A stretch of 63,719 bases of DNA, the filler included, from Candidatus Woesearchaeota archaeon (GTDB lineage: Archaea > Nanobdellota > Nanobdellia > Woesearchaeales > J072), in assembly GCA_003695265.1 (NCBI GenBank). It is 4 parts of 4 records of this genome, joined end to end, with 100 filler letters (N's around TTAATTAATTAA, not from the genome) between each part and the next. Parts side by side here need not be neighbours in the genome. Positions count along the whole stretch, not along the records: positions 27,902 to 47,512 come from RFII01000092.1; 3 more parts are not named here. One strand, written 5' to 3'. Within the stretch, counting starts at the first letter, position 1, and each line of letters opens with the position of its first letter. Made by a program: the position numbers and the translations under genes. Below are positions 4,321-51,832 of this stretch, piece by piece. The notes beneath the pieces were generated by a model. The model was given only the letters and a program-made list of their open reading frames with translations, had not been told where the DNA came from and made no database searches.

Positions 4321-4560
4321 GCGGGGATGCCGGAGCGGTCAAAGTCTGGGTTCAGCGTTCAGAACGCAGAACCTTGAAACGACCAGACGGGCCGGGCTTA
4401 GGACTCGGTGGCTTAGTGCCTACGGGGGTTCAAACCCAAACTTTTGGGCAAGCCAAAGGTTTGATCAAAATTCCGTCAAGTGAGGCGTTCACAGTTGAAC
4501 GTGAAACCTCACGATCAAAGCTGAGTAACCAGAAGTTTGGTGAAAGTCCTCCTCCCCGCA
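4321..4560 (+). tRNA. tRNA-Leu(TAG) with two non-canonical introns: D-loop ~4343-4386 and T-loop 59/60 4435-4546
   Basis: Spliced product GCGGGGATGCCGGAGCGGTCAA|ACGGGCCGGGCTTAGGACTCGGTGGCTTAGTGCCTACGGGGGTTCAAA|TCCTCCTCCCCGCA folds as a class II tRNA. BHB-type helices GGTC/GACC and TTCA/TGAA carry 3-nt bulges. Confidence 0.9.
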
Positions 4561-27801: not shown

Positions 27802-27901
27802 NNNNNNNNNNNNNNNNNNNNNNNNNNNNNNNNNNNNNNNNNNNNTTAATTAATTAANNNNNNNNNNNNNNNNNNNNNNNNNNNNNNNNNNNNNNNNNNN
27901 N
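27802..27901. other. Assembly gap / artificial contig linker
   Basis: 44 N + TTAATTAATTAA + 44 N, identical in all three gaps. Confidence 0.97.
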
Positions 27902-37529: not shown

Positions 37530-38648
37530 TCACAAGAAAAGATACATTAGTGAGCCAGCCATCGCCATAAAAAACCCGAGAATAATATTTTCAGTCAATG
37601 CTAATATTATAAATAAGGTTATTCTCCCTAAATGAATGCTTACCTCTCTGAAAACTATTGTTAAGACAATCCCTTCGCTGTTTGCCTTGTCATAAGAAAT
37701 CATTTCAAAAGGTATGCTCTGCGATGGCTTTACCAAGCCATAAACAGCATTAGTCCCAATAACTCCTGTAGTTGTTTTAATAAAAGAACGGGCAATCCAA
37801 ATTGCAAAAAGAAAAACACTCCCTGCCCTAAGCAAAAATTTTTGGTGCTTGTCTGATATCTTACTCACAAGAAAAACAACGAGCATTGTTGCAAAAAGTG
37901 TTATTGACTTGAAAACCCCTAATGAAACGTAATTTTTTGTTATGAGCAAAAAAATAATGACGGGCCATATTATGGCCTCAACCCCAAATTCGAAGCCCCA
38001 TGCGCTGAAACCAAGAAAATCTTTTATTCTATGGCTTTTGAACAACTTCTTAAATGAAACTGTAAGAGGCTCATGAATGTCTCTTGAGAAAAAAAGCGGC
38101 GCTGTCGAAGCTAGCAACAAGAAAGACACTATAACAAATAACGACTTGAAGCCAATTAAGCTGAGTATTAACCCCCCAATTATGGGTCCTGCAGAGCTGA
38201 AAACAGAGCTCAGTATTTTTGACGCACCAACCTCTTTTCCTCTTTTTCCTTTTTTGCTGAACTTTGCGAAATCAACATGGTACCCAATCCAAAACATCGC
38301 GAAGTTAATCCCTAAAAGCGCAGGTATAATAAAAAAGGATTTAGGAAAAGCCTTTAATGAAAAAAGAAGAACATAACCCACTATTAACAATGGAACACTG
38401 AACAGTATAGAATGCTTAAACCCGAACCTTGAAGCGAGTTTAGCAGCAGGGAAGACTGAAATTATCCAAAACACTTCCATTACTATATAAAAATAAAAAA
38501 CCTTGTTCAACCCGTAATCCAAGCTCAACAAGTAAAGAGGGATAAAAACAGAAATCATTGACAAGGCAAACGACCTTATCGCAATGCTCAAATATAATTC
38601 GTCAAGCTCTCTGTTTTTTAAAAAACTGAAAAAATGGTGGTTGTGCAT
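37530..38648 (-). CDS. MFS-type transporter
   Basis: About 12 hydrophobic segments; A.KL.SRFG.K loop motif, GPIIGG, SKISDK. Confidence 0.8.
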   Translation of the reverse strand: MHNHHFFSFLKNRELDELYLSIAIRSFALSMISVFIPLYLLSLDYGLNKVFYFYIVMEVFWIISVFPAAKLASRFGFKHSILFSVPLLIVGYVLLFSLKAFPKSFFIIPALLGINFAMFWIGYHVDFAKFSKKGKRGKEVGASKILSSVFSSAGPIIGGLILSLIGFKSLFVIVSFLLLASTAPLFFSRDIHEPLTVSFKKLFKSHRIKDFLGFSAWGFEFGVEAIIWPVIIFLLITKNYVSLGVFKSITLFATMLVVFLVSKISDKHQKFLLRAGSVFLFAIWIARSFIKTTTGVIGTNAVYGLVKPSQSIPFEMISYDKANSEGIVLTIVFREVSIHLGRITLFIILALTENIILGFFMAMAGSLMYLFL

Positions 38649-38691
38649 AGCAAAACCTATTTATATATCATCTTATTAAAGTTTTTGATAT

Positions 38692-38884
38692 ACGGCTGTG
38701 GTCCAGTGGTAAGATGCGACCCTCCCAACCTTTTTCCGGAATAAAAAGAATGGAGAGAGGTCGTGACCCGGGTTCAAAACAGATTTTTGCCAAAATCTGG
38801 TAAAAAGCGTTTAAGTGAGACCTTCACTGCGTGAAGTCTCACGAACCTCAACGGTAAAATCTGGTGAAAGTCCCGGCAGCCGTA
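38692..38884 (+). tRNA. tRNA-Gly(CCC) with canonical 37/38 intron (38728-38757) and T-loop 59/60 intron (38779-38870)
   Basis: Spliced ACGGCTGTGGTCCAGTGGTAAGATGCGACCCTCCCA|AGGTCGTGACCCGGGTTCAAA|TCCCGGCAGCCGTA folds as a cloverleaf. BHB helices CTCC/GGAG and TTCA/TGAA carry 3-nt bulges; TTTATATA promoter upstream. Confidence 0.9.
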
Positions 38885-39721
38885 TCAAACCAAAGTTATC
38901 TCCTCTGAATTCAAAAGAACCCTATCATCATTAACTTTTACAACTAATCTTCCATCATCCAAAATGTCAACAGCTCTTGCCGCTTGCGGTTCTCCTTCTG
39001 CTGCTGGTGGCTTGTACCTTACTTCTCTGCCTATAATGTCTGTTAATTCTTTGAACCTTGCAACAATCGGGTTTTCTGCCTCTTTTCCATAATCCCACAA
39101 TTCCAACCTTCTAACAGCATACCTTTCTGCCAGCCAAAAATATTTTTTCATCCTCGCAACAACATTTGCGAACAAGTAATCAAGGTCAGCTTCTCTTCCT
39201 GTTTCTTGAACAATGCTTGTAGCAGTATCAAGGATTCCTTCCATATTATTATTAACGTTTATTCCAACACCGACAAGGCTTGCGCCTAATAATTCGCTTT
39301 CCAAAACCTCTTCCACAAGAATTCCAGCAATTTTTTTCTCATTAACATAAACATCATTAGGCCACCTTGCTTTTGCCGGAACATACTTTTGCAGTGCTTC
39401 GCAAACAGAAACGCAAGCGGCCATTCCATAAAATTCGTTTAAGTCATGCCTTATTAGCGTGAACCATAAGCCGCCTTTCGGAGCATGCCATTCTCTTCCA
39501 AACCTGCCGTGCGCGTCTTTAACTTCATCTGCTAGCACAATCATGCCGTCTGATCTTTTTGAGCCAATGAGTCCTCTTGCGAATTCCTGCGTGCTTTTCA
39601 TGCTGTCATAATTGTAAATTGTACAGCCTAAAATTCTCGAGCCGTCTACTGTTCCTAAATCCTTGTACGCATCATCAATCATTCTGGCGAGCCTTTGTTC
39701 TCTTTCTATGTTCTCTTCCAT
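38885..39721 (-). CDS. birA: Biotin-protein ligase (no obvious N-terminal HTH)
   Basis: ST, GRFGREW.AP.GGLW, RWPNDV...KKIAGIL.E, VGVGINV. Track start 39778. Confidence 0.92.
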   Translation of the reverse strand: MEENIEREQRLARMIDDAYKDLGTVDGSRILGCTIYNYDSMKSTQEFARGLIGSKRSDGMIVLADEVKDAHGRFGREWHAPKGGLWFTLIRHDLNEFYGMAACVSVCEALQKYVPAKARWPNDVYVNEKKIAGILVEEVLESELLGASLVGVGINVNNNMEGILDTATSIVQETGREADLDYLFANVVARMKKYFWLAERYAVRRLELWDYGKEAENPIVARFKELTDIIGREVRYKPPAAEGEPQAARAVDILDDGRLVVKVNDDRVLLNSEEITLV

Positions 39722-40365
39722 TTTTGCCTTACAATCTCCTCCATTCTTTTCACTTCTTCCAGTTGCTCTTCTGGGCATATTCCTAGCAGAGGGCTTCCCT
39801 TTGCAACGCGCTGGCCGTTCGCAAAATAAACAGCATACAATATCCCATCCTTCCCGTTGTACCTTACAGGAACATCTCTTTTCATATAAGCCATGATGAC
39901 AGGCTTTATGCCAGGTCGAATAAGACTTCCTTGCTTTGCATTAAGAATATAAGTTGCGTCTTCAGGCGCTTCTAAAACTACAAGGACTTTCCTCAGTATC
40001 TCCTCTATTACTTCGTCGCTTGTCAAAGGATGCTGAATTGTCATCACATGAGTGAAAGCCTCTGCGTGTTTTCCTTCAAGAGCAGACTCTAAGTTACTCA
40101 CAGTACCATTTGTCGGAGAATAAATAATCTCTTTCGAGCCCTGCCTTTCAATCTCAAACAACGGCGTTCCAGGAATCTCTTTCCAATTTCCTCTCGGCCC
40201 AACAACAGAGTCACCTTCTTTCACAGTAGTTGCTCTTTCTTTTAATCTCTTGTTTGAGTAGGAAAACCTGACAATCCCACTATAAGGAGTTACAATTTCA
40301 ACATTCCTGTTAGGGTCAGATAAAATCCTTTCAAGCTCAGCATTTACGTCTACCATTTTAAGCAC
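39706..40365 (-). CDS. accB: Atypical biotin carboxyl carrier protein (two lipoyl/biotinyl-like halves)
   Basis: AYMKRDVPV resembles the EAMKM biotinyl-lysine motif; G..V.KG.PL; located between the carboxyltransferase gene and birA. Confidence 0.65.
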   Translation of the reverse strand: MLKMVDVNAELERILSDPNRNVEIVTPYSGIVRFSYSNKRLKERATTVKEGDSVVGPRGNWKEIPGTPLFEIERQGSKEIIYSPTNGTVSNLESALEGKHAEAFTHVMTIQHPLTSDEVIEEILRKVLVVLEAPEDATYILNAKQGSLIRPGIKPVIMAYMKRDVPVRYNGKDGILYAVYFANGQRVAKGSPLLGICPEEQLEEVKRMEEIVRQKWKRT

Positions 40366-40371
40366 ATAAAA

Positions 40372-42621
40372 TCACATGTAATAAAGGTTTTTTCCCTCTC
40401 CAAAAACCAAAATCCTATAAAGGTTCGGCCTTACCATGTCGCGCCGCCACAAACCTGTTATATGACCCCTCTGTTTTGCCTCTTCAACGTCATGATAATT
40501 CGGGCTGACTCTTATTCTTGTAGTGCGGTAAATAACGTCAGGCCCTGCAAAGCCGACTTTTATTGATGGCAGTGCGTAAATATTGTTTGGCATTGAGAGG
40601 AAGCTCGCGTAAGGCCCAGCGTAAGTCGTGCCTGCAAAAATGGATACTGGTAGGCCTCCTTTTTCCATGTACTCCTCTAAAACAGAGCTTACCTGCTCCA
40701 TTGCCTGCAAACCAACAGCTGATTCCTGCGTTCTTATGCCAACTGTTTTATGGCTGATGAAAAGGAAAGGCATTTTGTTTTTCATAGCTCTTTCAATTGC
40801 CAAGCATATTTTTTCGCTTCCTCCGATGCCCACAGAGCCTCCCCAAAAGTCTCCAATAAGCATTGCTCCAATAAGTTTAATTCCGTACAGCTTTGCTTCA
40901 AAAGTCAGCACAGAGCTGTTCTTTCCGCTCTTCCTTCTTGCTCTTTCAAGCCTTTCATTAACTCCTGGAAAACCAACAACGTTTGTTTCAATTATCCCAT
41001 CATTGAACTCATGGACAGAGCCTTTGTTAAACCATTTTGCAAGAAGATACTGCCATTCCATCTCGAAATGATAACCACAGTTAGGGCATATTCCAGCAAA
41101 TTCATTATAAAGGTCAGGAGCCCATACGTCCAAGCAGCCTTTTTCCTCTCTTTTTGGGCACTTCACTGACTTGTCAATTTTTGCTAATGGGCTAACATAA
41201 CTCTCATCAACAGGATACTTCTCCTCAAGCTTTTGAATCGAGCTTCTTATGTCCTCGCGCATCCCAAACCTTCTCGGAACACTAATTATTGTGCTACTTA
41301 AGTAAGGGTCGCCTGCTCTTGCGCTAATCGCGTCACCTATATCCCCTGCAGCTATAATAATCCTTCTTGTCGGCTTGAACACGCCCTTCCTCACAGCGTT
41401 TTTCAGCCTCATAATCCTATCTGTTCTTCTCTGCCTTGTCAAATCCGATTCTGAGCGTCTGTCTAAGTAAAATCCCTTGCTTAGCCTTCTTTCTTTATCC
41501 CTCCTGTCCCTAACAACCTTTTCTAACTCCTTTCTTGAAAGCTCCCAAGGCACGTAAACATAAAATTTTCCGTCTGTCTCTTCAAATGATCCTTGCTTTC
41601 TTAAATAATTGCGCAGTTTTCTTTCTGATCTTGCTCGCAAGACTATTTCATCAGTTGCTTTTATCACGTCGTACCTTGCTCTCCTGAAAAATTCTATATC
41701 ACCAGACCTTGCTCCTAAAGGAGGTTCCTCAATTATACCATCAATAATACCAAATCTCAAGCAGTCTCTTGCTGTTATCCTTAAATTCGCGGCGCATTGC
41801 TCGATAAGCTCTTTTATTTTGTCATCAGTCCTCTCTTCAGGAGGAAGCTGGAGGGCTTCTATGGCAGCAGCCCCTTCAGGCGAAATAGCGCTGTACCACG
41901 CGTGGGAAGTCATGAGGCGAATATTTCCAACGCCAGCTGCCTCGAAGCCGCCTGAGCCGCCCTGGCCGTAATTAACAACAACAATAGGAATTCTTGCTGA
42001 GGTTGCTACGCGTATGGCTCTGCTGATTGACTGGGCTGCTCCTGGATACTCTTCTAAAGCTTTTGTTCCCGGCGTGGAAGCCCATAAATGAACTGGTGTT
42101 TGCTCCCTTTCAGCCCTGCGTATAAAGTGAGCTATTTTCTGGTTTCCGAATTGGTTTGCAGCGCCTCCACTCCTCTCATCCTGGCCGTGGCCTGACTCGT
42201 GGCCTATGACCATAACCCTATCACCCAATAGGCTTCTTCCTTTTCTTCTCTGAATTATTGCCCTGGCAACAACGACTGCTGGGTCAGGGTCTTTTAAGTC
42301 TTCTCCGCTTATCACTTCGAAACTATCATAACAAAAAGTTAAAATGTCATGTAAACTTATTCTGTCAGGATGCCTGCTTATTCTAACAATTTCCATTGGT
42401 GTTCTCGGCTCTTCACTCATAATCTTTTCTGCTTCTGACACTTTGCTTTCAAGGTTGCCAAGCTGCGAATCAAGGTCAGCGCCTCTGAGGCTTTCCCATC
42501 CTGACTCTAACGAGAAAAAAGCGCCTTTTAAGTTTTCAAGATAAGCCGGCAGGTCATCTCCTTTGATGTCACACAAGTAATTAAACCTTCTGCGCAGCTC
42601 ATCAAATTTTTCTGCTCTCAT
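40372..42621 (-). CDS. accA: Acetyl-CoA carboxylase carboxyltransferase, fused alpha (AccA) + beta (AccD)
   Basis: N-half V...RHP.R, TPG, GGSGG, YSAISPEG.A.I (AccA). C-half zinc ribbon CP..C..CPNC, GGSVG, GIRTQE, GFAGP.VI (AccD). Track start 42666. Confidence 0.88.
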   Translation of the reverse strand: MRAEKFDELRRRFNYLCDIKGDDLPAYLENLKGAFFSLESGWESLRGADLDSQLGNLESKVSEAEKIMSEEPRTPMEIVRISRHPDRISLHDILTFCYDSFEVISGEDLKDPDPAVVVARAIIQRRKGRSLLGDRVMVIGHESGHGQDERSGGAANQFGNQKIAHFIRRAEREQTPVHLWASTPGTKALEEYPGAAQSISRAIRVATSARIPIVVVNYGQGGSGGFEAAGVGNIRLMTSHAWYSAISPEGAAAIEALQLPPEERTDDKIKELIEQCAANLRITARDCLRFGIIDGIIEEPPLGARSGDIEFFRRARYDVIKATDEIVLRARSERKLRNYLRKQGSFEETDGKFYVYVPWELSRKELEKVVRDRRDKERRLSKGFYLDRRSESDLTRQRRTDRIMRLKNAVRKGVFKPTRRIIIAAGDIGDAISARAGDPYLSSTIISVPRRFGMREDIRSSIQKLEEKYPVDESYVSPLAKIDKSVKCPKREEKGCLDVWAPDLYNEFAGICPNCGYHFEMEWQYLLAKWFNKGSVHEFNDGIIETNVVGFPGVNERLERARRKSGKNSSVLTFEAKLYGIKLIGAMLIGDFWGGSVGIGGSEKICLAIERAMKNKMPFLFISHKTVGIRTQESAVGLQAMEQVSSVLEEYMEKGGLPVSIFAGTTYAGPYASFLSMPNNIYALPSIKVGFAGPDVIYRTTRIRVSPNYHDVEEAKQRGHITGLWRRDMVRPNLYRILVFGEGKNLYYM

Positions 42622-42622
42622 T

Positions 42623-44026
42623 TTAAAATTCCCATAAATTAGGAATGCGGCTTTTAAGGTAATCAAGGTTTGTGACTAAAGGCTTTGAGCCTTCACCTTC
42701 AATTACCACTTCATCTAAAAAGCGCTTGCCACGCTCCTTCGCCTGGTCTATTGAATCGCCCCAAATAACCACTAATGCTAAGGTAGGATCATAATCTGTT
42801 ATTATTTTGTACGGCCTGTCATTTGGAACGTGAGTGTAAACAGCAGCCCACTCATGCTTCGGAAAATCAAACCTTGTTATGGTTCCTGCCCATTGCTCAA
42901 AATCTTTGTCAACATCTTCTGCAAGTATCCTAAATTCAATGCTGGCCCTTCCTCCAGTACTGACATGTTTTTGCTTATATCCCAATTCTTCTCCAAGCGC
43001 TGTCCGAATCATCTCAACGATAAGGTTAGTGCCAATCCTTCCTTTCACTGATGAAATCCTGCCCGAAACGTCATTCTCAACCTGAATCCTAGTGTTTACT
43101 TCCAGCAAATATAATTCTCCTTTCTTAGTTACTAACCATTCCCAAGTGCCTGCACTGTTATATCCTAATTTGTAAGCCATTTTCATAGAATGCCTTATTG
43201 CTTCCTTCATCACTTTTTTAGGGTCAAAACCATAATCTATTCTGGTATCAAAAGCAGGGGCCAGCTCAATTCTTTTCTGCCTTTGAGGGCTTTGAATAGT
43301 GCAGTTCCTTGTCCCAAAATTAACAATGCGTCCTTTCCTATCACCTATGATTTGAACTTCAATATGATTAAAATCGCTGAACAGGTGCTCTATGAGAAGG
43401 GTGTCATCATGAAAATGATTTCTGGCATAAGACCTCGCCTCATTAAACCTTAAAGCCAGCTCATCAAGAGATCTTTCATCCACGTTCCTGAGTTCATACA
43501 ATCCGCGGCCGCCTCCTCCTGCAGACGCCTTTATTAGAATGTCTGGCCCGTGCTTTCTAACAAGCCTTTTCACTATTTCCTCTGCCTCTATTATGTCCCT
43601 GACAGGACTAGTTGATCCTGGTATTGTTGGGATTCCTAATCTCCTAGCAACTTTTTTCGTGTTTACCTTGCTTCCCAAATCCCTCACATACTCCCATGTT
43701 GGTGCTATTGGAATTATAGGTCTGCTTCTCTTCTGAAGCCTTCTTATAACTCTCCAGTTTTCAGACAGCATTCCATAACCAAAAAAAATTGCATTACACC
43801 CAGTCGCATCAGCTGCTTCTAAAATTTCGTTAGGATCATCATATTTTGAGACTCTCCAAGCCCTTTTCCTGCCAGGCATGTCTTCTTCCAATGCTGTTCT
43901 CGCGTGCAGCGACTCAGAATCCTGCTGCGTGTAAATAGCAACGTAATCTAAGCCAAGCTCTTTGCAAGCGTTTATTCCCCTGAGAGCTATTTCACCCCTA
44001 TTAGCAATAAGAACCTTGTTTTTCAT
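42623..44026 (-). CDS. accC: Biotin carboxylase
   Basis: KVLIANRGEIA, GYG.LSEN, IKASAGGGGRG, HIEVQI, RNC.IQ..RQK.IE, LEVNTRIQVE. Confidence 0.95.
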   Translation of the reverse strand: MKNKVLIANRGEIALRGINACKELGLDYVAIYTQQDSESLHARTALEEDMPGRKRAWRVSKYDDPNEILEAADATGCNAIFFGYGMLSENWRVIRRLQKRSRPIIPIAPTWEYVRDLGSKVNTKKVARRLGIPTIPGSTSPVRDIIEAEEIVKRLVRKHGPDILIKASAGGGGRGLYELRNVDERSLDELALRFNEARSYARNHFHDDTLLIEHLFSDFNHIEVQIIGDRKGRIVNFGTRNCTIQSPQRQKRIELAPAFDTRIDYGFDPKKVMKEAIRHSMKMAYKLGYNSAGTWEWLVTKKGELYLLEVNTRIQVENDVSGRISSVKGRIGTNLIVEMIRTALGEELGYKQKHVSTGGRASIEFRILAEDVDKDFEQWAGTITRFDFPKHEWAAVYTHVPNDRPYKIITDYDPTLALVVIWGDSIDQAKERGKRFLDEVVIEGEGSKPLVTNLDYLKSRIPNLWEF

Positions 44027-44034
44027 ATTACTTC

Positions 44035-44058
44035 TAAATCACTAATCTTAGTGATTTA
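44035..44058. promoter_or_regulatory. Perfect inverted repeat (candidate operator) in the acc operon promoter
   Basis: TAAATCACTAA-TC-TTAGTGATTTA lies between the minus-strand TATA-like TTTAAA and the accC start codon. Confidence 0.55.
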
Positions 44059-44112
44059 AATAATTTTTGGAGAGACACCATTCTGAAGTGAGAAAAACAA
44101 AAATCATCTGGA

Positions 44113-44604
44113 TTAAGCCGCTGCTCTTCTAATTGAATGTGGAAGAATAATGGCTATTGCATAAATTATTCCTACCATTATAGGGTTATGCATTGGAACG
44201 TTAAGCTCTAGAATAAGACCCAAATAATTTGTTATTATAGTAATAAGAACAAATATCACAGCAGCAATCACAGGTAGCATAATCATATTTAGTATGTAAT
44301 GGTGGTTTGTTAATGAGGCATCTGACAACAAACTGTCAAAAAGCACGCCAAAAACAAGCCCGGCAACAATTATTGTTATGTATAAGTTAAAATCGTCAAA
44401 AACAAGTATTAGAGGAACTAAGCTTAGTGATATTATCCCATTGCCAATGAGTATTATTGCAAGAACAAGCCAATATGCGAAGTGCTCAAAAACCCTTATT
44501 CCTTTCGATTTATTTATTTGGGCGCGTTTTAAAATAACACACACTTTCTCAATCTCCTCTCTTATCCACCCTTTTTTTTCTAGCCTTCTTACCAATTCCT
44601 TCAT
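44113..44604 (-). CDS. Hypothetical membrane protein
   Basis: Charged N-terminus (L..KGW..EEI) then four hydrophobic helices; ATGA-coupled to minD. Confidence 0.7.
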   Translation of the reverse strand: MKELVRRLEKKGWIREEIEKVCVILKRAQINKSKGIRVFEHFAYWLVLAIILIGNGIISLSLVPLILVFDDFNLYITIIVAGLVFGVLFDSLLSDASLTNHHYILNMIMLPVIAAVIFVLITIITNYLGLILELNVPMHNPIMVGIIYAIAIILPHSIRRAAA

Positions 44605-45374
44605 TTTCTTAGTTTTTCAAGAAAAACATCCAACTTTGTCTTGTTTTCAGGAAGAGGAGCCTCATATTTTTGTCCCAGGATTCTTGCTGCAAGCCTTTTT
44701 ATTGCGAGCGACGCTTTTGAGTGCGGATAAACATAAACAAAAGGCTGCTTCTGCCTGTAAGCTTTTCTGACAACATTGTCATGAGGTATTGATTCTATTA
44801 CCGGAACTTCCAGGATAGACTCAATATTTTCTTTTGACATATCATACTCATCTCCTGAAATGTTGTTAAGGACAGCGCCTGAAACTTTTATTCCTAACTC
44901 ATCAGCCAGCTGAACTGTCCTGTAAGTGCCTGTGACCGCAAGAAGCTCAGGCGTTGTTATTGCAATAACCTCGTCACTTGCTTTTATCACATTTCTCACA
45001 TCATTACCCAATCCGGATCCGCTGTCTAAAATCACGAACTCAGCAGATCCAACCAAATCGAGAACAACGTCATGTATTTTTTCAGGATTAATCCTTTTTG
45101 AATGCTCATAGGAAAGGCTTAACGGAACAATTCTGAGCTTTGAAGGATGCAAATACATTGCATCACTAATATGCTTTTTGCCCTCCATAACATCATTTAA
45201 TGTGATTGGAGGATTATGATAACCTATCAGGATTGCGACGTTCGGCACAGAGAAATTCGCATCAATGTATACTACGTCATGCTTGAACTGGCTCAGCGCT
45301 ATCGCAACATTGAATGAGACAACTGTTTTTCCAACACCTCCTTTTGCGCTAGCAAAAGTTATGAACTTTGTCAT
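44601..45374 (-). CDS. minD: MinD/ParA-family ATPase
   Basis: Deviant Walker A SAKGGVGKT, IDAN, ILDS..G, ITTPE, IPHD..V. Confidence 0.88.
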   Translation of the reverse strand: MTKFITFASAKGGVGKTVVSFNVAIALSQFKHDVVYIDANFSVPNVAILIGYHNPPITLNDVMEGKKHISDAMYLHPSKLRIVPLSLSYEHSKRINPEKIHDVVLDLVGSAEFVILDSGSGLGNDVRNVIKASDEVIAITTPELLAVTGTYRTVQLADELGIKVSGAVLNNISGDEYDMSKENIESILEVPVIESIPHDNVVRKAYRQKQPFVYVYPHSKASLAIKRLAARILGQKYEAPLPENKTKLDVFLEKLRK

Positions 45375-45859
45375 TCTTCTTCTTTCCTCACAATCATTCT
45401 TATTTCATGAAAAAATTGCTTTATCTGCTTGTAAAGATCAGTCACAGTGTCAATATTAATCTCAACTTTTTCACCTTCAACATCCAAAATCATTGCTACA
45501 TGGCGCCTGTACTCATTCACACTTTCATACTCTAACTTGTCCATTTTCCTAAACTTTAGGTAAGTGTCAATGTTCTTCTGAAGATCTGGGATTTCAGGGT
45601 AAACTTCTTTCAAAGCGTCGCACATCTTCACAGGATTGTCCGGAATTTCACTTATTTTCTTCTCTTCTTTTGCAAATTCTAGCAATGCCTTTATTGCAAG
45701 CTCGTAAAAACTGATCATCCTTTTCATCACCTGCTTGAGCATGTCAGCAGTTCTCGTGTATTTTAAGCTGACAAAAATCAGGTGATCAAGCCTTTTCAGC
45801 TCGTCATACGCCAAATCTATGGTTTCCTTAAATTCCTCGTCGTCCAAATAACTCATCAT
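45371..45859 (-). CDS. Conserved hypothetical helical protein
   Basis: A.DELKR.DH.I.VSLKYTRT.D; apparently paralogous to the upstream gene. Confidence 0.7.
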   Translation of the reverse strand: MMSYLDDEEFKETIDLAYDELKRLDHLIFVSLKYTRTADMLKQVMKRMISFYELAIKALLEFAKEEKKISEIPDNPVKMCDALKEVYPEIPDLQKNIDTYLKFRKMDKLEYESVNEYRRHVAMILDVEGEKVEINIDTVTDLYKQIKQFFHEIRMIVRKEEE

Positions 45860-46325
45860 TTTCCTCAACCAATATGTTTATTTGATGTACAAACATCTTT
45901 GCCTTTGCTACGTAACTTTTCATCTTCTCCACACTTATAGCTTTTATGCTATAATTATCAGAGCAAATCACAAACTTGTCCTTTCTTGAAAACTCCACGG
46001 GGCTTTTCTTGTGCTCAAGCACCAAGTTCTTCACTTCAAGTATAAAATCAAGGTACTCTTTCTGAATGTTGTACCTTCTCGCGCATTTGTCCCTGAAAAC
46101 CATAAATTTAGACTCAAAAGTGTCTTGGAAAGGCGGAACGCGTTTGTACATGCGATCAAGGTAAAGCAACGAAGCCATAGCGTTGGTCAAACTTAAGAAA
46201 AGGTTTTCCATCACAGAAGCTAATAATTTAGGATCCTTCACCATAGGATATGTCACTGTTAGCATATGGTCCGCGACTTGTAAATTTTTTTTGGCCTTTT
46301 GCTGCGCCAGCTGAAACTTTTCCAT
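45828..46325 (-). CDS. Conserved hypothetical helical protein
   Basis: A.K.LQ.ADHML.VTYP..KD.KLL; same architecture as the downstream gene. Confidence 0.7.
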   Translation of the reverse strand: MEKFQLAQQKAKKNLQVADHMLTVTYPMVKDPKLLASVMENLFLSLTNAMASLLYLDRMYKRVPPFQDTFESKFMVFRDKCARRYNIQKEYLDFILEVKNLVLEHKKSPVEFSRKDKFVICSDNYSIKAISVEKMKSYVAKAKMFVHQINILVEENDELFGRRGI

Positions 46326-46383
46326 AGGTAATAATAAAGGTAATCGACTATTATATATTAATGTTGTGTTCTGCCAAGCGAAT

Positions 46384-46722
46384 TTATTCCTTTAACTTCA
46401 ATATCGCTTCTGCAATGTCCCCTTTTGTCTCTTCCAAAGCTTTTCTTGCCTCTTCTTCAGAGCAGTTTACCTGCTCCATCACAGTATTAATATCATCTTC
46501 ACTTATCTCAGGCTGTGTAGAAAGTGGTTGTTCAACCGGTTCACCTATGATCTGATAAGTGCTTTGCCCCATCATGTTGACTTTCGCGACCTGTGGGTTT
46601 TTGAAAACTAGTTGATAATCATTTGTCTTTATCACAACCTCAACTGCGTCTATGTCCTGCTGCTGTATTCCCATGCGCTTCATAGCCTGCCTCATTTGCC
46701 GAGGATTCATTCCTGGTATCAT
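46384..46722 (-). CDS. nac: Nascent polypeptide-associated complex protein
   Basis: MNPRQM..AMKRMGI, NAC domain, UBA domain EDDI..VMEQ...A..ALEE..GDIAEAI. Track start 46788. Confidence 0.95.
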   Translation of the reverse strand: MIPGMNPRQMRQAMKRMGIQQQDIDAVEVVIKTNDYQLVFKNPQVAKVNMMGQSTYQIIGEPVEQPLSTQPEISEDDINTVMEQVNCSEEEARKALEETKGDIAEAILKLKE

Positions 46723-46724
46723 TT

Positions 46725-46898
46725 TCACAAACCCAACCAACCATTGCCAAAAGTGTAAAGAATGATCAAAATCAACATCACTAAACATATTAAAACAATG
46801 ATATGGCCTGGCTGAAACTCTATCTTACTCTTGTAATCATCAAAATACCTTACAAGCCCTCCTATACCAGAGGGCATAGTAACCCTGTCTCTTGCCAT
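46725..46898 (-). CDS. secG: Preprotein translocase subunit Sec61beta/SecG
   Basis: MP.G.GGLVRYFDD..SKI...P followed by one TM helix. Confidence 0.92.
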   Translation of the reverse strand: MARDRVTMPSGIGGLVRYFDDYKSKIEFQPGHIIVLICLVMLILIILYTFGNGWLGL

Positions 46899-46975
46899 AA
46901 AAGAAGAGAATAAATAAATATTTAAAAAGATTTCGGGATTCAGCGTTCTCAATAATTAGAAACCATTAAAAAACT

Positions 46976-47362
46976 TGTAGGGAAGCTGTAAGCCGCCTTC
47001 TGTCAACCTTCCCTTCAAAGGAACAGGTTGCCTTAACATTTAACTAAGCGTCTTAATGACTTGCACTGGCCAGGGCTCGCCGTTTCACCCATTCCACAAA
47101 GAGCGTCCGCGGGTTATCTCGGTTTTGTCGCCAAAACCTTCTCCAGCATCACCCTCCAATGTGGCGGTCTCGTTTCTGAGCGGTTGCCATCCCTTTCGAG
47201 ATCTCCGAAGAGTGGCCTGTTTTTAGTGGGCGGACTTTCCTCACAAACTTTTGCCAAAGTTTGATCAAATGCAGTTAAGTGGGATGTTCTCGTTGCGCTC
47301 GAAATCCCACGAAAATTATTTAATCCTTGGCAAAGTCTGCGAAAGTTAAGCGCTTCCCTACA
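46976..47362 (-). ncRNA. rnpB: RNase P RNA, with an ~100-nt insertion in the P3 region
   Basis: Minus strand has GAGGAAAGTCCGCC (CR-I), GAAAC and GTGAAACGG motifs, ACAGAAGGCGGCTTA (CR-V, pairs as P4), and termini GTAGGGAAGC/GCTTCCCTAC forming P1. Confidence 0.92.
47243..47345 (+). repeat. Copy of the tRNA T-loop intron element inside rnpB (antisense to the RNA)
   Basis: CAAACTTTTG-CCAAAG-TTTGATCAAA...AAGTGGGA...TCCCACGA...AAAGTCTGCGAAAG matches the tRNA-Leu intron 4435-4546 and the tRNA-Gly intron 38779-38870. Confidence 0.8.
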
Positions 47363-47512
47363 TTAATGATGAGATTCATTTTTCTTTTTTAAATCTTTCT
47401 GTAAACAACAAGGTATTCGTAGCATATTATAGGGAACCTTTCTCCTATCTTATCTAAAAACTTTTTAAGGAACAAAAAATATTTTATTAATCTATAATAA
47501 AATCTAAATGGG

Positions 47513-47612
47513 NNNNNNNNNNNNNNNNNNNNNNNNNNNNNNNNNNNNNNNNNNNNTTAATTAATTAANNNNNNNNNNNNNNNNNNNNNNNNNNNNNNNN
47601 NNNNNNNNNNNN
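47513..47612. other. Assembly gap / artificial contig linker
   Basis: N run with central TTAATTAATTAA. Confidence 0.97.
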
Positions 47613-51732: not shown

Positions 51733-51832
51733 NNNNNNNNNNNNNNNNNNNNNNNNNNNNNNNNNNNNNNNNNNNNTTAATTAATTAANNNNNNNNNNNN
51801 NNNNNNNNNNNNNNNNNNNNNNNNNNNNNNNN
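51733..51832. other. Assembly gap / artificial contig linker
   Basis: N run with central TTAATTAATTAA. Confidence 0.97.

Follow-up and report, generated by a model that had tools for sequence, protein, structure and literature searches.

A hairpin repeat of archaeal tRNA introns lies reversed in the P3 helix of RNase P RNA and recurs there in relatives

The rnpB locus and its extended P3 helix

The window analysed here comprises 63,719 nucleotides of a Candidatus Woesearchaeota genome (GCA_003695265.1; G000 in the following, with C-numbers for its contigs, other G-numbers for genomes of relatives, and L-numbers for individual loci compared). G000 (1.06 Mb, 94.6% complete) is the only member of its family, in an order with more than 130 families. 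Because N-gap linkers at 27802-27901, 47513-47612, and 51733-51832 join separate contigs, gene order across these three gaps carries no meaning. The archaeal RNase P RNA gene rnpB, located on C44, occupies positions 46976..47362 (387 nt), its ends being set by an 11-bp P1 helix in which 47362-47352 pairs with 46986-46976. Its assignment to the minus strand in the initial annotation was borne out by an Rfam scan, in which RF00373 matched 46980-47291 with 101.6 bits against a gathering cut-off of 84. The model begins within an insert and misses the true 5' end of rnpB; such inserts cut the Rfam RNase P match short. On the same strand, we located the 5' strand of P2 (47345..47350; 6 bp, partner within 47027-47040, a position common to relatives), CR-I (47232..47242, GAGGAAAGTCC), and, read from the sequence, a TATA-like box at 47386..47393, 24-31 nt upstream of the rnpB 5' end, which may represent a promoter element of the gene. 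P1, P2, and CR-I are all intact, and CR-I resembles the 3' end of a T-loop intron plus exon (TGAAAGTCC). Directly 3' of rnpB lies a small membrane-protein ORF (46725-46898, minus strand), which we take to be Sec61beta/SecG-like; the same order was seen in L094, L097, and L102. As this is the sole rnpB match in G000, which encodes Rpp29 and Pop5 and showed no match to HARP-type PIN_5 (protein-only RNase P), the RNase P RNA is probably needed.

P3 extends over 102 nt (47241..47342, minus strand) between P2 and CR-I. Its outer 5 bp (47342-47338 with 47245-47241; TCGCA/TGTGA) are native and also occur in the short-P3 relatives L023, L027, and L045, which places the insert in the P3 loop. The 3' strand of P3 is made by the conserved end of a repeat, a palindromic hairpin plus ATCAAA, at 47244..47269 (pattern match G000:C44:19343-19368; profile E 7.4e-16); this end reads on the plus strand and is hence reversed in the RNA. 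Alignment of 20 genome matches and folds identified the inner hairpin of the repeat (47279..47310, plus strand) as the tip of P3. The helix is closed by a 5' arm (47318..47339, minus strand), which folding and global alignment to an intron on C76 identified as a shortened inverted copy of the conserved end; 8 nt of this arm are missing from the C76 intron. On the transcribed strand, 47240-47345 folds as a single long hairpin (-36.8 kcal/mol, z -5.2), compared with -25.1 kcal/mol (z -2.2) on the opposite strand. The earlier proposal that the arms of the element pair into an extended P3 agrees with the fold, except that the outer 5 bp of these arms are native P3. Of the sequencing runs listed for 38500-47510, none was an RNA run, and the best DNA match was a hot-spring metagenome that may be the source. 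Assembled contigs of three DNA runs were compared at rnpB, a comparison that shows presence only: in run X1, possibly the source run, a single contig of 8668 bases covers the insert, and none of the listed joints bypasses it. The P3 insert is a real feature and no misassembly.

A repeat family associated with tRNA genes

In the repeat unit, a palindromic hairpin is followed by a short A-rich linker (ATCAAA or a variant of it), then by a second hairpin, and finally by a tail that varies; the unit is non-coding and about 70-100 nt long. A profile search of G000 returned 20 matches at E<=1e-7 (19 distinct loci, one of them matched twice), the best E in three shuffled genomes being 0.014. With contexts read by eye, 18 of the 19 copies lie in or against tRNA genes and the remaining copy lies in rnpB. 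Taking forward to mean that the hairpin end comes first in the RNA, the tRNA-internal copies are 11 forward T-loop introns, one reversed T-loop intron (C76), and one forward D-loop insert. These 13 intron copies occupy different tRNA genes, and some are 96-98% identical. Six of the 19 copies are not tRNA introns: besides the rnpB copy, three reversed ones lie flush with tRNA 5' ends (C75, and twice on C27), with the same reading as in rnpB, and two forward ones belong to a tandem array on C32 with duplicated tRNA 5' ends. In this array (G000:C32:3340-3600), the 5' end of tRNA-Ser (~19 bases) plus repeat occurs twice ahead of the intact tRNA, forming a duplication series.

In the window, tRNA-Gly(CCC) (38692..38884, plus strand) has an anticodon-loop intron and a 92-nt 59/60 intron (38779-38870) that is a forward repeat copy; tRNA-Leu(TAG) (4321..4560, plus strand) has a D-loop insert and a 112-nt 59/60 intron (4435-4546), likewise a forward copy. 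The tRNA genes of G000 were located with a T-arm script, which yields an incomplete catalogue; a 59/60 intron is present in most genes found in this way, and several of these introns belong to other repeat families. ARAGORN detected 0 tRNAs in the window, relaxed settings giving spurious ones only, and 11 genes, some spurious, in the whole of G000, as inserts hide most tRNA genes. No Rfam family was found for the repeat in gathering scans (window, 14 + 20 loci) or in an E-value scan of 6 loci.

P3 inserts and repeat copies in relatives

Among 156 rnpB loci of the order, P3 was measurable in 126. The median excludes the misparsed L200 and L222, 14 rows lacking a length, and 14 missed loci; in none of these did the profile or reading by eye reveal an element end (L225 was unreadable). 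Median P3 length over the 126 loci was 18 nt, with a range of 9-70 nt where the repeat is missing; P3 exceeds 90 nt in 4/126 loci, all with the repeat. We distinguished 11 P3 inserts (G000, G093, G316, G390, G407, L094, L095, L100, L101, L102, and L103), one of which rests on L094 from the unpublished genome G402. Not counted were L098 (bacterial rnpB, hairpin only), L099 (not rnpB), L104 (hairpin only, no orientation), and L096, L097, and L105, which repeat G093, G316, and L103. The G000 insert matches nine of the ten others better in the same orientation (z 4.4-11). The G390 insert was missed by the profile built from G000 and is linked to the family via L103 (z 9.0). Genus-mates of G093, G316, and G390 (G245, G020, and G169, respectively) have a short P3, indicating that these three insertions are separate, recent events. 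With P3 mostly short among relatives and a significant alignment to tRNA introns, the finding of an intron-like element in P3, made in the initial annotation, survives. On sequence comparison, reversed insertion into P3 has recurred in related archaea.

The repeat was detected by BLAST in 31/401 genomes of the order, and the exact pattern of its 26-nt end in 64/401 genomes of the phylum, as against 1 for a reversed-pattern control; both tallies include G000 and, among relatives, a few unpublished genomes. Copy number is high in G056, G307, G386, and G061, which have kin with no copies. Copies were also seen in rRNA spacers and directly 3' of rnpB (L230, L235; G061:C2:62675-62701). In G403, three near-identical structured elements of ~300 bases (L121, L124, L127) contain the same hairpin end, L121 and L127 having no Rfam match at E<=1. 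In L107 and L108, contigs of bacterial type from a viral collection, the same end comes after a GC-rich hairpin, so the motif may not be restricted to archaea. In the rnpB of L222 (G368:C74:9320-9860), P1 and P2 are separated by a long hairpin insert that opens with a palindrome resembling the repeat end, forward; it was rejected as a family member because its best z of 4.2 equals the shuffle maximum and is not significant.

Orientation of P3 and tRNA copies

Against the window introns at 38779-38870 and 4435-4546, the rnpB insert reached antisense local scores of 61 (z 9.8) and 66 (z 12.0) versus sense scores of 25 and 31, with shuffle maxima of 33-41. It is reversed against 12 of the 13 intron copies in G000 and 8/9 full introns tested. 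Within G000, however, the T-loop intron on C76 matches it best, and does so in the same sense (score 99, z 19.6), with 42/44 identical positions over the 3' arm and an extension into GAAAGTCC, common to intron end and CR-I. The original description of the element as antisense to the tRNA introns therefore applies to the two introns of the window, but not to C76 or the three tRNA-leader copies. As C76 is a same-sense donor, the orientation of the rnpB copy alone does not exclude an RNA route.

In relatives, 21/21 tRNA-internal copies are forward (batches of 10, 7, and 4, by eye; unpublished L115 excluded), making 33/34 with G000; tRNA copies seen in G316, G401, and G403, genomes partly catalogued, are forward as well. 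The reversed end lies beside CR-I in all 11 P3 inserts, compared with 1/34 reversed among tRNA-internal copies, and this orientation contrast between P3 and tRNA copies is systematic. Six of the 11 inserts were retrieved with a CR-I-anchored pattern, whose anchoring favours the reversed end and biases these six; unanchored searches gave G093, G316, G390, and G407. A forward end is also present on the 5' side in 4/11 inserts. Two reasons for the reversal may be considered: the template strand of native P3 may offer a short match to the first bases of the element, or the reversed end may be retained because it makes a clean 3' strand or a BHB half-site.

The likeness to C76 also suggests another origin, rather unlikely in our judgement, in which a C76-like tRNA intron was the template for the P3 insert, whether by gene conversion or via an RNA/cDNA intermediate, with use of the likeness of TGAAAGTCC to CR-I, the bulge being lost afterwards. 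C76 has the same orientation and gives the best score, and the match continues into GAAAGTCCG (54 columns, 90.7%, one 3-nt gap). Yet copies are reversed in every P3 insert and only once in tRNAs, so flow could have been opposite; moreover, the inner hairpins differ and no reverse transcriptase match was found in G000. This reading concerns origin only and is compatible with retention of the insert.

Flank duplications and spread of the repeat

A direct repeat at the conserved end, defined by a score of at least 12, an end no more than 12 bases from the hairpin end, and reappearance after the tail, was found at 15/42 copies versus 3/299 random positions; in one of the 15, the element itself is in tandem. 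Duplications are 12-52 bases long, those of 38 and 39 bases, found at non-tRNA sites, being perfect, and none was found in 27/42 copies. Relative to tRNA transcription, copies occur on both strands, and four non-RNA sites (L241, L245, L248, L254) show them between duplicated flanks. Spread of the family at the DNA level appears well supported by these comparisons. The initial annotation had favoured DNA-level insertion over reverse splicing because of the reversed orientation; for the family this preference stands, on both orientations, copies outside introns, and duplicated flanks, but not on the orientation argument alone. The four rnpB copies in the duplication test have no flanking direct repeat (scores 4-6), so DNA-level entry into P3 is carried over from the family.

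Two inverted ends are present in G093, G316, L100, and L102, a shortened second one in G000, and just a single end in leader copies. The combination of inverted second ends with direct duplications of varying length is suggestive of a polymerase template switch for which the hairpin acts as priming site; between this and an enzyme acting in trans we see perhaps even odds. Searches of G000 for Y1 transposase (PF01797), TnpB, reverse transcriptase, and Cas1 gave no match in the 94.6% complete genome, and one tyrosine recombinase is present. A viral scan, in which flanks only were read, returned five stretches, none adjoining an identified transposase. A target motif of the IS91 or IS605 type was considered and dropped, as the bases beside the conserved end vary.

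Retention of the insert versus splicing

All nine tRNA T-loop introns tested form a BHB at a cost of 0-4.7 kcal/mol. At the ends of the rnpB insert none was found, and any BHB would cost at least 15.4 kcal/mol. The initial statement that the transcribed strand has no clear BHB is correct for these ends but overlooks a weak BHB-like register within P3, the only one in G000 in a relaxed scan (helix 47325-47322 with 47266-47263, 3-nt bulge 47262-47260), whose 3' half is the reversed element end. If used, this site would release a hypothetical stretch of 59 nt (47261..47319, minus strand). The share predicted for it, 5e-5 at 37 C and 1e-3 at 70 C, lies ~20-fold under the weakest tRNA control (control ranges 0.001-0.52 and 0.019-0.30, respectively). 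The register recurs in 4/11 P3 inserts, namely G000, L094 (4.5e-6), L103 (0.0034), and G390 (0.23), and may reflect selection for splicing in these four. Five of the 11 lack any register within 9 kcal/mol and two have unrelated weak ones only; setting aside the weak ones of G000 and L094, 7/11 have no BHB register above 2e-4. The G390 insert (L178, G390:C1:561520-562060), whose predicted share is like that of true tRNA introns, is the best candidate intron in RNase P RNA. EndA and RtcB are encoded in G000, the single EndA match (L091, G000:C17) spanning 190 aa from its ATG.

For 10/11 P3 inserts, the transcribed strand gives the better fold, which would follow from selection on the RNA helix, with G/U content partly responsible. 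Given no terminal BHB, intact P1, P2, and CR-I, a sole rnpB, and recurrence in relatives, the best reading is that the insert is retained, and folding predictions make it quite likely that it forms an extended P3 in the RNase P RNA. P3 lies near the protein-binding face of the RNase P catalytic domain in the accessible part of one account (PMC4919922), so a 100-nt extension is not trivially neutral; the recurrence of P3 inserts argues for tolerance. Partial splicing through the internal half-site is, on the modelled shares, unlikely.

We also doubt that the inner 59 nt constitute a BHB/BHL-type intron, in which EndA would cut two 3-nt bulges, RtcB would join the ends, and P3 would shrink to ~17 bp and a 7-nt loop. 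The shared register, with G390 and L103 inside the tRNA control range, is consistent with such an intron, as is the presence of both enzymes in an organism that must already splice 59/60 introns. In G000, however, the 4-bp helix is lengthened to 8 bp, which masks the 5' bulge, in keeping with its low predicted share, and 5/11 inserts lack any register within 9 kcal/mol. We consider it improbable that stable RNAs have recruited the hairpin end as a functional RNA or protein-binding module rather than carrying it as a selfish insert: its high conservation and excess over the control pattern across the phylum, and its strong tie to tRNA, rRNA spacers, and rnpB, would fit, but it is patchy, missing from genus-mates, present in transcripts in both orientations, and also found at the non-RNA sites between duplicated flanks. 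Although repeat copies break the G000 assembly elsewhere (C26/C75, C84/C65), an insert that inactivated rnpB or an assembly chimera with a tRNA intron is very improbable, given the single spanning contig, the intact P1, P2, and CR-I, and the same arrangement in 10 other organisms.

Discussion

Homology, the copy census, orientations, presence and absence among genus-mates, flank duplications, and folding underlie a reading that we hold to be reasonably likely: the repeat spreads as DNA and entered P3 reversed, and the resulting RNA is most likely unspliced and working, its retention, its activity, and the copying mechanism being what we infer. A small non-coding DNA repeat would spread at the level of DNA, frequently with duplication of 12-50 bases of its entry site, and would survive only where harmless. 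Within tRNAs, its ends would fold into a BHB and EndA and RtcB would remove it; beside tRNAs, the duplication would restore the gene; in the P3 loop of RNase P RNA, it would be retained as a long hairpin directed away from the catalytic core. In G000, the repeat would have entered P3 with its conserved end reversed and adjoining CR-I, and a second, shortened inverted end would have closed the helix. Copying would proceed by polymerase template switch or by an enzyme not found in G000, and C76, the lone reversed tRNA intron, may have exchanged its 3' part with rnpB through the shared GAAAGTCC.

A bolder extension, which we regard as tentative and rather doubtful, is that new archaeal introns are actively supplied by a single hairpin repeat, with RNase P RNA showing every stage, including EndA-spliced introns. 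Stages would range from hairpin only (L104) through retained expansion (G093, G316, L100) and half-formed splice site (G000) to full BHB (G390, L103). The reversed end would supply a ready-made 3' half-site (GATC-AAA), which would explain the always-reversed P3 copies. If true, EndA-spliced RNase P RNA would mean that one tRNA-processing enzyme matures the other.

Since one family occurs as intron, leader, trailer, between duplicated flanks, and in a ribozyme helix, with genus-level presence and absence, the route by which introns arrive becomes testable, and its recurrent reversed insertion in related archaea offers a handle on the origin of archaeal tRNA introns. P3 acts as a natural control, a landing site needing no BHB, and also supplies, in G390, a candidate intron in RNase P RNA. 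In its accessible part, a 2026 Asgard preprint found no general route of archaeal tRNA intron arrival (10.64898/2026.10.13.758758); on repeats in RNase P helices, the accessible part of PMC7191817 mentions length variation only. Our literature search, which most subscription papers lay beyond, found no description of the repeat family or of such RNase P RNA inserts. Added here are the measured orientation contrast, the genus-level presence and absence at P3, and a graded BHB series with G390.

Several known systems share features with the repeat. The rnpB copy differs from archaeal BHB introns removed by EndA and RtcB, which the tested tRNA copies resemble, in having no BHB at its ends and only a weak inner register. 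Compared with RAYT-linked REP/REPIN sequences, the Y1-type RAYT transposase (PF01797) is missing from the matches in G000. In bacteria, Rickettsia palindromic elements occur in tmRNA and RNase P RNA genes and STRR repeats in cyanobacterial P12, similarly tolerated in an outer RNase P RNA helix; however, they are bacterial and not tied to tRNA introns, and we know of no orientation contrast between host RNAs described for them. The integrating element of Caldiarchaeum, as far as the accessible part of its description goes, disrupted tRNAs, with tRNA fragments duplicated and introns gained (Sugahara et al. 2012, PMC3293823); the likeness lies in both outcomes through DNA-level integration, but that element is 1.8 kb long with a recombinase, whereas the repeat here codes for nothing. 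Bacterial MITEs and small repeats are described, in the part of the review available, as short, non-coding, stem-loop forming, dispersed, and flanked by direct repeats (Delihas 2011, PMC3184786), all of which applies to the G000 repeat. Its duplications vary in length, in contrast to those of a MITE; a single conserved end appears to stand in place of two fixed terminal inverted repeats, and no partner transposase was found among the families searched. In Thermoproteales, near-identical introns occur in different tRNA genes at non-canonical positions such as 59/60 (Fujishima et al. 2010 per PMC4090602), and the accessible part of the latter source supposes tRNA intron gain at the DNA level by a transposition mechanism that it calls unknown. 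The likeness to those transposed introns, within what this source covers, is that several tRNA genes within a genome have similar introns; the difference is that the repeat described here also occupies leaders, trailers, duplicated flanks, and P3, in both orientations and in many families. In its behaviour the repeat resembles both a MITE-type repeat tolerated in an outer helix and the Thermoproteales introns, yet it departs from each on a defining point.
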